Positions 19,795 through 21,374 of a DNA stretch of 64,000 bases are shown here, piece by piece. Below the pieces are notes generated by a model. It saw only the letters and a list, made by a program, of their open reading frames with translations, did not search any database and was not told the DNA's origin. The stretch lies in the sequence record ON782582.1; one strand, 5' to 3'. How positions within the stretch are numbered: the first letter of the stretch is position 1; every line of letters begins with the position of its first letter. This DNA is from Escherichia phage ECP52. The translations under genes were made by a program, and so were the position numbers.

Positions 19795-20535
19795 ATGATT
19801 AGTGACTCTATGACAGTTGAAGAAATCCGTCTTCATTTGGGGCTTGCATTAAAAGAAAAAGATTTCGTAGTCGATAAAACTGGTGTTAAAACTATTGAAA
19901 TTATTGGCGCATCATTTGTAGCAGATGAACCGTTTATTTTTGGCGCTCTTAATGATGAATACATTCAACGTGAACTTGAATGGTATAAATCTAAGAGCTT
20001 GTTTGTTAAAGATATTCCAGGCGAAACACCAAAGATTTGGCAGCAGGTAGCATCTTCTAAAGGCGAAATTAACTCGAATTATGGTTGGGCTATTTGGTCA
20101 GAAGATAACTATGCCCAGTATGATATGTGTTTAGCTGAACTTGGTCAAAATCCTGATTCTCGACGTGGTATCATGATTTATACTCGTCCATCCATGCAAT
20201 TTGACTACAATAAAGATGGTATGTCAGATTTCATGTGTACGAATACAGTACAGTATCTGATTCGTGATAAGAAAGTCAATGCAGTAGTAAGCATGCGCTC
20301 AAATGACGTGGTCTTCGGATTCCGTAATGATTATGCATGGCAAAAATACGTATTAGATAAATTAGTATCTGATTTGAATGCAGGCGATTCAACTCGTCAG
20401 TATAAAGCAGGTTCTATTATATGGAATGTTGGAAGTCTTCATGTATATTCTCGTCATTTTTACTTGGTTGATCATTGGTGGAATACTGGCGAAACTCATA
20501 TTGTGAAAAAAGACTATAAAGGTGAGTGGAAATGA
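19795..20535 (+). CDS. 42: dCMP hydroxymethylase (246 aa)
   Basis: Thymidylate-synthase-like fold; T4 gp42 is 246 aa; position. Confidence 0.9.
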   Translation: MISDSMTVEEIRLHLGLALKEKDFVVDKTGVKTIEIIGASFVADEPFIFGALNDEYIQRELEWYKSKSLFVKDIPGETPKIWQQVASSKGEINSNYGWAIWSEDNYAQYDMCLAELGQNPDSRRGIMIYTRPSMQFDYNKDGMSDFMCTNTVQYLIRDKKVNAVVSMRSNDVVFGFRNDYAWQKYVLDKLVSDLNAGDSTRQYKAGSIIWNVGSLHVYSRHFYLVDHWWNTGETHIVKKDYKGEWK

Positions 20536-21374
20536 TTCAATTCGTAATTCCAAGTTATCAGCGTGTCGGGGCAGTTTCTGCCCTTGATATGTTTCCGACT
20601 GATTATGAACCTCATATTGTAGTGCGTGAACACGAAGAAAAAGCTTATTATGATGCCTATGGGTCTAGAGCTAAAATTATAACTATTCCTGATGATGTGA
20701 ACGGAATTGCCGGTACTCGTAAAGCAATTACTGATATGTATGCAGGCCAACGAATCTGGATGATTGACGATGATACTACTATTCGTATGAGTTCAATGCG
20801 AAAAAGAGATGACCGTCGTTGTGTGGATAAAGTCAATCAATTGACTCATGAACAGTTCTATGAATTGATTCAATACGTCGAAGATGCCATGGATTGCGGG
20901 TATTATCACGGTCATGCTCGCCTACCAATTTTTAAAATTACTTCATCTTGGGGTAATTATCGTGAAAATTCATATGGATTCACGAATACATGGTATGACC
21001 TTGGAAAACTTACGACAGAACAAATTGGGTATGGAAAAATTGATTTGTGCGAAGATATGTATGCATTTCTCAATTTAATTAATCAAGGTTATCCGCATTT
21101 GGCCTTGTTCAAATATCTGGTTGTATCTGGAAAAGCACAAGCTCCTGGTGGGTGTAGTTCAATTCGCAGTAATTCTAAACATAATAGAGCGCTTGAGCAA
21201 ATCAATAGAGAGTTTCCAGAGCAAGCTCGTTGGAAAACTTCTAATATTGAAAAACGAAAATCGTTGGGTGAAGAAGATGAACCACTAAAGGTTCTTCGCA
21301 TGTGTGTTTCGCGTAAAGAAAAATCAGAAGCATTTCATAAGTTTAATGCTATTCATCCAATAGCAGTTGATTAA
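20532..21374 (+). CDS. putative DxD glycosyltransferase (280 aa) in the slot where T4 has bgt
   Basis: ATG overlapping gene 42 stop; MIDDD motif; not the T4 beta-gt sequence. Confidence 0.5.
   Translation: MIQFVIPSYQRVGAVSALDMFPTDYEPHIVVREHEEKAYYDAYGSRAKIITIPDDVNGIAGTRKAITDMYAGQRIWMIDDDTTIRMSSMRKRDDRRCVDKVNQLTHEQFYELIQYVEDAMDCGYYHGHARLPIFKITSSWGNYRENSYGFTNTWYDLGKLTTEQIGYGKIDLCEDMYAFLNLINQGYPHLALFKYLVVSGKAQAPGGCSSIRSNSKHNRALEQINREFPEQARWKTSNIEKRKSLGEEDEPLKVLRMCVSRKEKSEAFHKFNAIHPIAVD

Follow-up and report, generated by a model that had tools for sequence, protein, structure and literature searches.

A gene very probably encoding a T2/T6-type beta-glucosyl-HMC-alpha-glucosyltransferase between gene 42 and uvsX of Escherichia phage ECP52

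Introduction

Which host defences are able to attack phage DNA depends on the pattern of sugars on its HMC. McrBC and McrA are blocked by glucosylation; GmrSD-type enzymes have both glucosyl-HMC and gentiobiosyl-HMC as targets; the glycosylase Brig1 excises alpha-glucosyl-HMC, and T6 DNA, which contains mostly gentiobiosyl-HMC, is not degraded by it (PMC13216743, PMC11078745).

The genomic slot between gene 42 and uvsX contributes to this pattern in different ways in different T-even phages. In T4, it is occupied by the gene b-gt (351 aa, NP_049658.1), followed by the homing endonuclease gene segA. The window analyzed here, 64,000 nucleotides of Escherichia phage ECP52 (sequence record ON782582.1), contains another ORF in this slot, and the question is which enzyme it encodes. 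According to the initial annotation, an ORF of 280 amino acids with the motif MIDDD is located between gene 42 and uvsX; its coordinates, length, neighbours and motif were all given correctly.

Results and Discussion

Organization of the slot

The following features define the slot and the gene in it.

19795..20535, plus strand: gene 42, dCMP hydroxymethylase, 97% identical to T4 gp42 and annotated so in T4, T6 and others.
20520..20526, plus strand: Shine–Dalgarno-like AGGTGAG, read from the sequence and separated by 5 nt from ATG 20532; T2 and T6 have the same element.
20532..21374, plus strand: ba-gt (ggt / TAGT), very probable coding sequence of beta-glucosyl-HMC-alpha-glucosyltransferase, 280 aa plus stop, by ORF, T2 identity, PHROG and Pfam.
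21452..22633, plus strand: uvsX, the right-hand bound of the slot, by ORF; homology to T4 uvsX resumes at 21464.

The ba-gt ORF ends at position 21374 of the plus strand. The earliest start codon in frame is GTG 20526; translation from ATG 20532 gives a protein of 280 aa. The latter codon is the likely start, because it overlaps the stop of gene 42 in an ATGA, has AGGTGAG upstream, and is also the annotated start in T2, RB32 and Bas44. The ATGA at 20532–20535, in which the start of ba-gt overlaps the TGA stop of gene 42, suggests translational coupling of the two genes. The breakpoints relative to T4, found by blastn, are at window positions 20517 and 21464.

In a scan of 19500–21700 for promoters and terminators, sites were no more numerous than in shuffled sequence, and a dedicated ba-gt promoter is therefore unsupported. 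The gene is probably transcribed by read-through from gene 42.

A terminator-like hairpin, GGGGCAGTTTCTGCCCT, with a T-rich tail is located at 20568–20584, within codons 13–18 of ba-gt. T2 and T6 have the same hairpin, and in the record MH992510, a terminator is annotated under this region. The hairpin may be a chance occurrence, since the scan was no richer than shuffled sequence. Between ba-gt and uvsX lies a spacer of 77 nt, with 100% identity among the window, T2 and T6, and it contains the extended -10-like element TGTTATAAT at 21390–21398. The element has no -35 match and is therefore absent from the list of sites produced by the consensus scan; judging by its sequence, it could serve uvsX as a putative T4-type promoter of the early or middle class.

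Assignment to the TAGT family

The ORF 20532..21374 is, with high probability, ba-gt of the T2/T6 type, also named ggt or beta-glucosyl-HMC-alpha-glucosyltransferase, a member of the Pfam family TAGT. The encoded protein is 98.9% identical over 280 aa to the T2 protein of the same slot and matches PHROG 842, ‘beta-glucosyl-HMC-alpha-glucosyltransferase’, with E = 6e-89. The Pfam model PF20691 (TET-associated glycosyltransferase, TAGT) is matched by residues 3–207 over profile positions 2–205 of 205, with 39.1 bits against a gathering cutoff of 27.5; the modest score reflects the divergence of the phage proteins within TAGT. Compared with the TAGT family, the T-even proteins extend at the C-terminus about 70 residues beyond the Pfam model, and their partner is the thymidylate-synthase-like hydroxymethylase gp42 and not a TET/JBP dioxygenase. 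In NCBIfam, no model matching the ba-gt or the alpha-gt of the window was found.

Full-length ba-gt was detected by megablast in 474 phage records with DNA identity of 90–98.5%, and the ORF is therefore a real gene. Most of these records belong to Tequatroviruses of Escherichia, Shigella, Yersinia, Salmonella and Citrobacter, and the commonest informative label among them is beta-glucosyl-HMC-alpha-glucosyltransferase. The T2 and T6 genes were reportedly first cloned by Winkler and Rueger (1993, Nucleic Acids Research).

When solved structures were searched by sequence with the window protein, no match was better than chance (a PNPOx-like protein, E = 1.5). No solved structure findable by sequence exists for any member of the ba-gt family, and the catalytic residues considered below are for this reason inferred.

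Conserved motifs and predicted fold

An exhaustive HMMER search (E ≤ 0.001) yielded 336 relatives. The alignment was composed of 90 full-length relatives, with identity down to about 20%, and the window protein; all 91 sequences are TAGT members. Residues R11, D80, D175 and G207 are invariant in this alignment, and I6, P7, R63, D79, D81, G186, G206 and R212 are conserved in at least 90% of the sequences. The main motifs are as follows.

20562..20564, plus strand: codon of Arg11, at the end of the N-terminal FVIPSYQR motif; invariant among the 91 sequences; first strand (residues 3–7 of the model) and loop, in the GT-A nucleotide-binding half.
20766..20774, plus strand: DDD (D79–D81), a DxD-type motif between model strands 74–78 and 82–89; D80 is invariant.
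21051..21056, plus strand: E174–D175 (ED), candidate catalytic-base region; D175 is invariant among the 91 sequences.
21147..21158, plus strand: motif G206–G207–C208–S209; G207 is invariant and G206 is conserved in at least 90%.

The fold of the window ba-gt is predicted to be GT-A. The conserved DxD following the central strand is present (D79–D80–D81 after model strand 74–78), and the predicted model is a single Rossmann-like alpha/beta/alpha domain matching solved GT-A structures; a two-domain GT-B fold, as in T4 b-gt, was not found for the window protein. The TAGT of T6 was likewise modelled as GT-A, sister to GT2 (PMC13216743). Identity of the window protein to the GT2-like inverting GT-A enzymes TarP, TarS, K4CP, WrtF, AvpGT and BcsA is 15% or less, and no match to Pfam Glycos_transf_2 was obtained at E up to 1. 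The acceptor of these enzymes is a glycan, a lipid or teichoic acid, whereas that of ba-gt is a sugar on duplex DNA.

The initial annotation had proposed the ORF as a candidate for the T2/T6-type enzyme adding the second glucose; identity to the T2 and T6 proteins, PHROG 842, Pfam TAGT, the predicted GT-A fold and the DDD motif all back this proposal. Homology to a non-glycosyltransferase family or identity with T4 b-gt, named there as findings that would refute it, was not detected.

Comparison with T4 b-gt and possible history of the slot

The same genomic slot and the label ‘putative beta-glucosyltransferase’, which the gene bears in some records, would be expected if the ORF were a diverged orthologue of T4 b-gt, adding a single beta-glucose to HMC. 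This orthology was ruled out. BLASTP of the window protein against T4 b-gt gave only chance matches, the best with E = 0.28 over 10 residues, in agreement with the earlier view that the ORF is not T4 b-gt; tblastn of T4 b-gt against the 64-kb window revealed no homologue (best E = 1.5), and the Pfam family of b-gt was not reported for the window protein. The proteins also differ in length (280 versus 351 aa) and in fold, which is predicted GT-A here and GT-B in T4 b-gt (PMC13216743).

The gene ba-gt and T4 b-gt thus share the slot, the donor UDP-glucose (according to the literature) and the beta linkage, but they are unrelated in sequence and fold, the acceptor of T4 b-gt is bare HMC and not alpha-glucosyl-HMC, and b-gt is accompanied by segA. 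A tblastn search with segA against the whole window found nothing (E = 1.4). In the phage collection, T4-type b-gt is present in 29 records, most of them of T4 or T4 derivatives, and ba-gt in 474; the arrangement of the window is the common one and T4 is the exception.

A trace of ba-gt was found in T4 itself.

21352..21376, plus strand: 25 nt at the end of ba-gt, including the TAA stop, with a 24/25-identical copy in T4 (blastn E = 3e-6).

The T4 copy, TTCATCGAATAGCAGTTGATTAATG, is located between b-gt and segA, 3 nt before the ATG of segA (4239–4263, minus strand, of the T4 segment compared). At the level of sequence, this remnant of the 3' end suggests that the slot was occupied by ba-gt first and acquired b-gt and segA later. 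The combination of alpha-gt and beta-gt has been described as a recent event (PMC13216743), with which the ba-gt remnant in T4 fits.

Proposed pathway of HMC glucosylation

Genes of alpha-gt, gp42 and gp56 are all present in the window together with ba-gt.

7718..8920, plus strand: a-gt, DNA alpha-glucosyltransferase, full-length match to PDB 1xv5 and 1y6f (crystal structures of T4 alpha-gt), E = 5e-257.
27361..27879, plus strand: gene 56, dCTPase; tblastn with T6 gp56 gives 98% over 172 aa at 27361–27876, and the stop is assumed to follow directly.

In the proposed pathway, gp56 and gp42 would replace dCTP with hydroxymethyl-dCTP, gp56 keeping unmodified C out of the phage DNA, and the polymerase would put HMC into DNA. 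In the duplex, alpha-gt would then attach an alpha-linked glucose to HMC, forming the acceptor for ba-gt, which would transfer a second glucose from UDP-glucose to the 6-OH of the first one in a beta-1,6 linkage, with gentiobiosyl-HMC as the product. The reaction and product ascribed to ba-gt are those given in the literature for T6 and related phages. The enzyme would be a small single-domain GT-A transferase of the inverting type, forming a beta product from the alpha-linked donor UDP-glucose, which fits a GT2-like fold. The DDD motif would bind a divalent metal ion and the diphosphate of UDP, the DxD motif being the sole basis for this putative metal dependence. The base would be a conserved acidic residue, with D175 as the candidate by analogy with inverting GT-A enzymes in general.

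Deletion of ba-gt in T6 left alpha-glucosyl-HMC only and increased sensitivity to Brig1 (PMC11078745; bioRxiv 10.64898/2026.02.25.707755). In Tequatroviruses with alpha-gt and TAGT and no beta-gt, HPLC/MS detected alpha-gentiobiosyl-methyl-dC and no beta-glucosyl form (PMC13390438). Since the window contains alpha-gt and ba-gt, with no b-gt in the slot, a modification and defence-sensitivity profile of the T2/T6 type is predicted for this phage.

Another specificity within the same TAGT family, namely a different sugar donor, a different linkage or primary transfer to unglucosylated HMC, is extremely improbable. Specificity does vary across the family, whose members are found together with alpha-gt, together with beta-gt or on their own (PMC13216743). 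[quoted passage not shown]

Comparison with T2 and T6

The ba-gt genes of T2 and T6 resemble that of the window in length, in location between gene 42 and uvsX, in the ATGA overlap and in the downstream intergenic region. Across the entire slot, with the spacer that precedes uvsX included, DNA identity among the window, T2 and T6 is about 98%. The T2 protein (BBF63203.1, AP018813) differs from that of the window by R11H, H106R and P250S (window residue first), and the T6 protein (AXN58083.1, MH550421) by Y40N, D55G and one lesion particular to each T6 record, three positions in all. Thus, the window protein has Arg11, His106 and Pro250, as in T6, and Tyr40 and Asp55, as in T2. The alpha-gt of the window is 99% identical to that of T2 and 91% identical to those of T4 and T6. 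Judged by these identities, the two glucosyltransferase genes of the window are of mosaic ancestry, with alpha-gt T2-like and ba-gt T6-like at positions 11, 106 and 250.

Gentiobiosyl-HMC makes up about 5% of HMC in T2 versus about 72% in T6 (PMC13390438). The presence of ba-gt does not predict the extent of modification, because T2, with a nearly identical gene, reaches only the lower of these values; for the window phage, the extent of double glucosylation of HMC is inferred. A weakly active or inactive ba-gt, with DNA mostly mono-alpha-glucosylated as in T2, is very improbable. It would accord with the low gentiobiosyl-HMC of T2, whose gene is 99% identical, with the T2-type alpha-gt of the window (99%) and with the lesions that arose in ba-gt of both public T6 records. 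Against it, the window ORF is intact and has the consensus residue at every invariant or nearly invariant position, including Arg11 and the full DDD.

In T2 AP018813, codon 11 of ba-gt (8093–8095, minus strand, of the T2 segment compared, corresponding to window 20562–20564) encodes His. Residue 11 is Arg in the window, T6, RB32, Bas44 and more distant relatives, and His is private to T2 among the sequences compared. The first 66 nt of ba-gt are identical in all eight T2 or SV76 records (8/8).

In the literature examined, no explanation for the difference in gentiobiosyl-HMC between T2 and T6 was found. From its sequence context, R11H of T2 could be a hypomorphic change contributing to the low level in this phage; divergence of about 9% between the alpha-gt of T2 and T6 is a rival explanation for the same gap. 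It is rather doubtful that R11H limits double glucosylation in T2 and that the window phage, combining Arg11 with a T2-type alpha-gt, would thus be heavily doubly glucosylated. If true, the window phage would be a ready-made test of the quantitative difference between T2 and T6, despite its T2-like alpha-gt, although the R11H reading bears on T2 more than on the window gene.

In the T6 record MH550421, an amber TAG is located at codon 10 of ggt (window 20559–20561), in place of the Gln10 codon (CAG or CAA) of the window and T2. The gene is annotated there from Met20, with a product of 261 aa; the first strand (FVIPSY) and Arg11 would be missing from this product. In the T6 record AP018814 (ba-gt at 2135–2974, minus strand, of the T6 segment compared), Gln10 is intact and one GAT of (GAT)3 is lost; DDD is thereby changed to DD in a protein of 279 aa, the site corresponding to window 20766–20774. 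Probably, therefore, both public T6 genome records carry different lesions in the same ba-gt gene, which could reflect drift of laboratory stocks, selection or sequencing error. The possibility that the window ba-gt is a pseudogene like the copies in these records was considered and rejected, its ORF being intact at Q10 and DDD.

Annotation of the slot in public records

The gene, its position, family and fold have all been published, including the synteny of TAGT with T4 beta-gt (PMC13390438), and many records annotate ba-gt correctly; the finding is not new. The assignment is useful for annotation and for the choice of phages, and adds no new biology.

Annotation of the slot is inconsistent. 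The T4-type b-gt of RB55 and RB59 is labelled ‘beta-glucosyl-HMC-alpha-glucosyl-transferase’, and several ba-gt genes in public records are labelled ‘putative beta-glucosyltransferase’ or ‘hypothetical protein’. The RefSeq name for the neighbouring gene 42 is ‘thymidylate synthase’.
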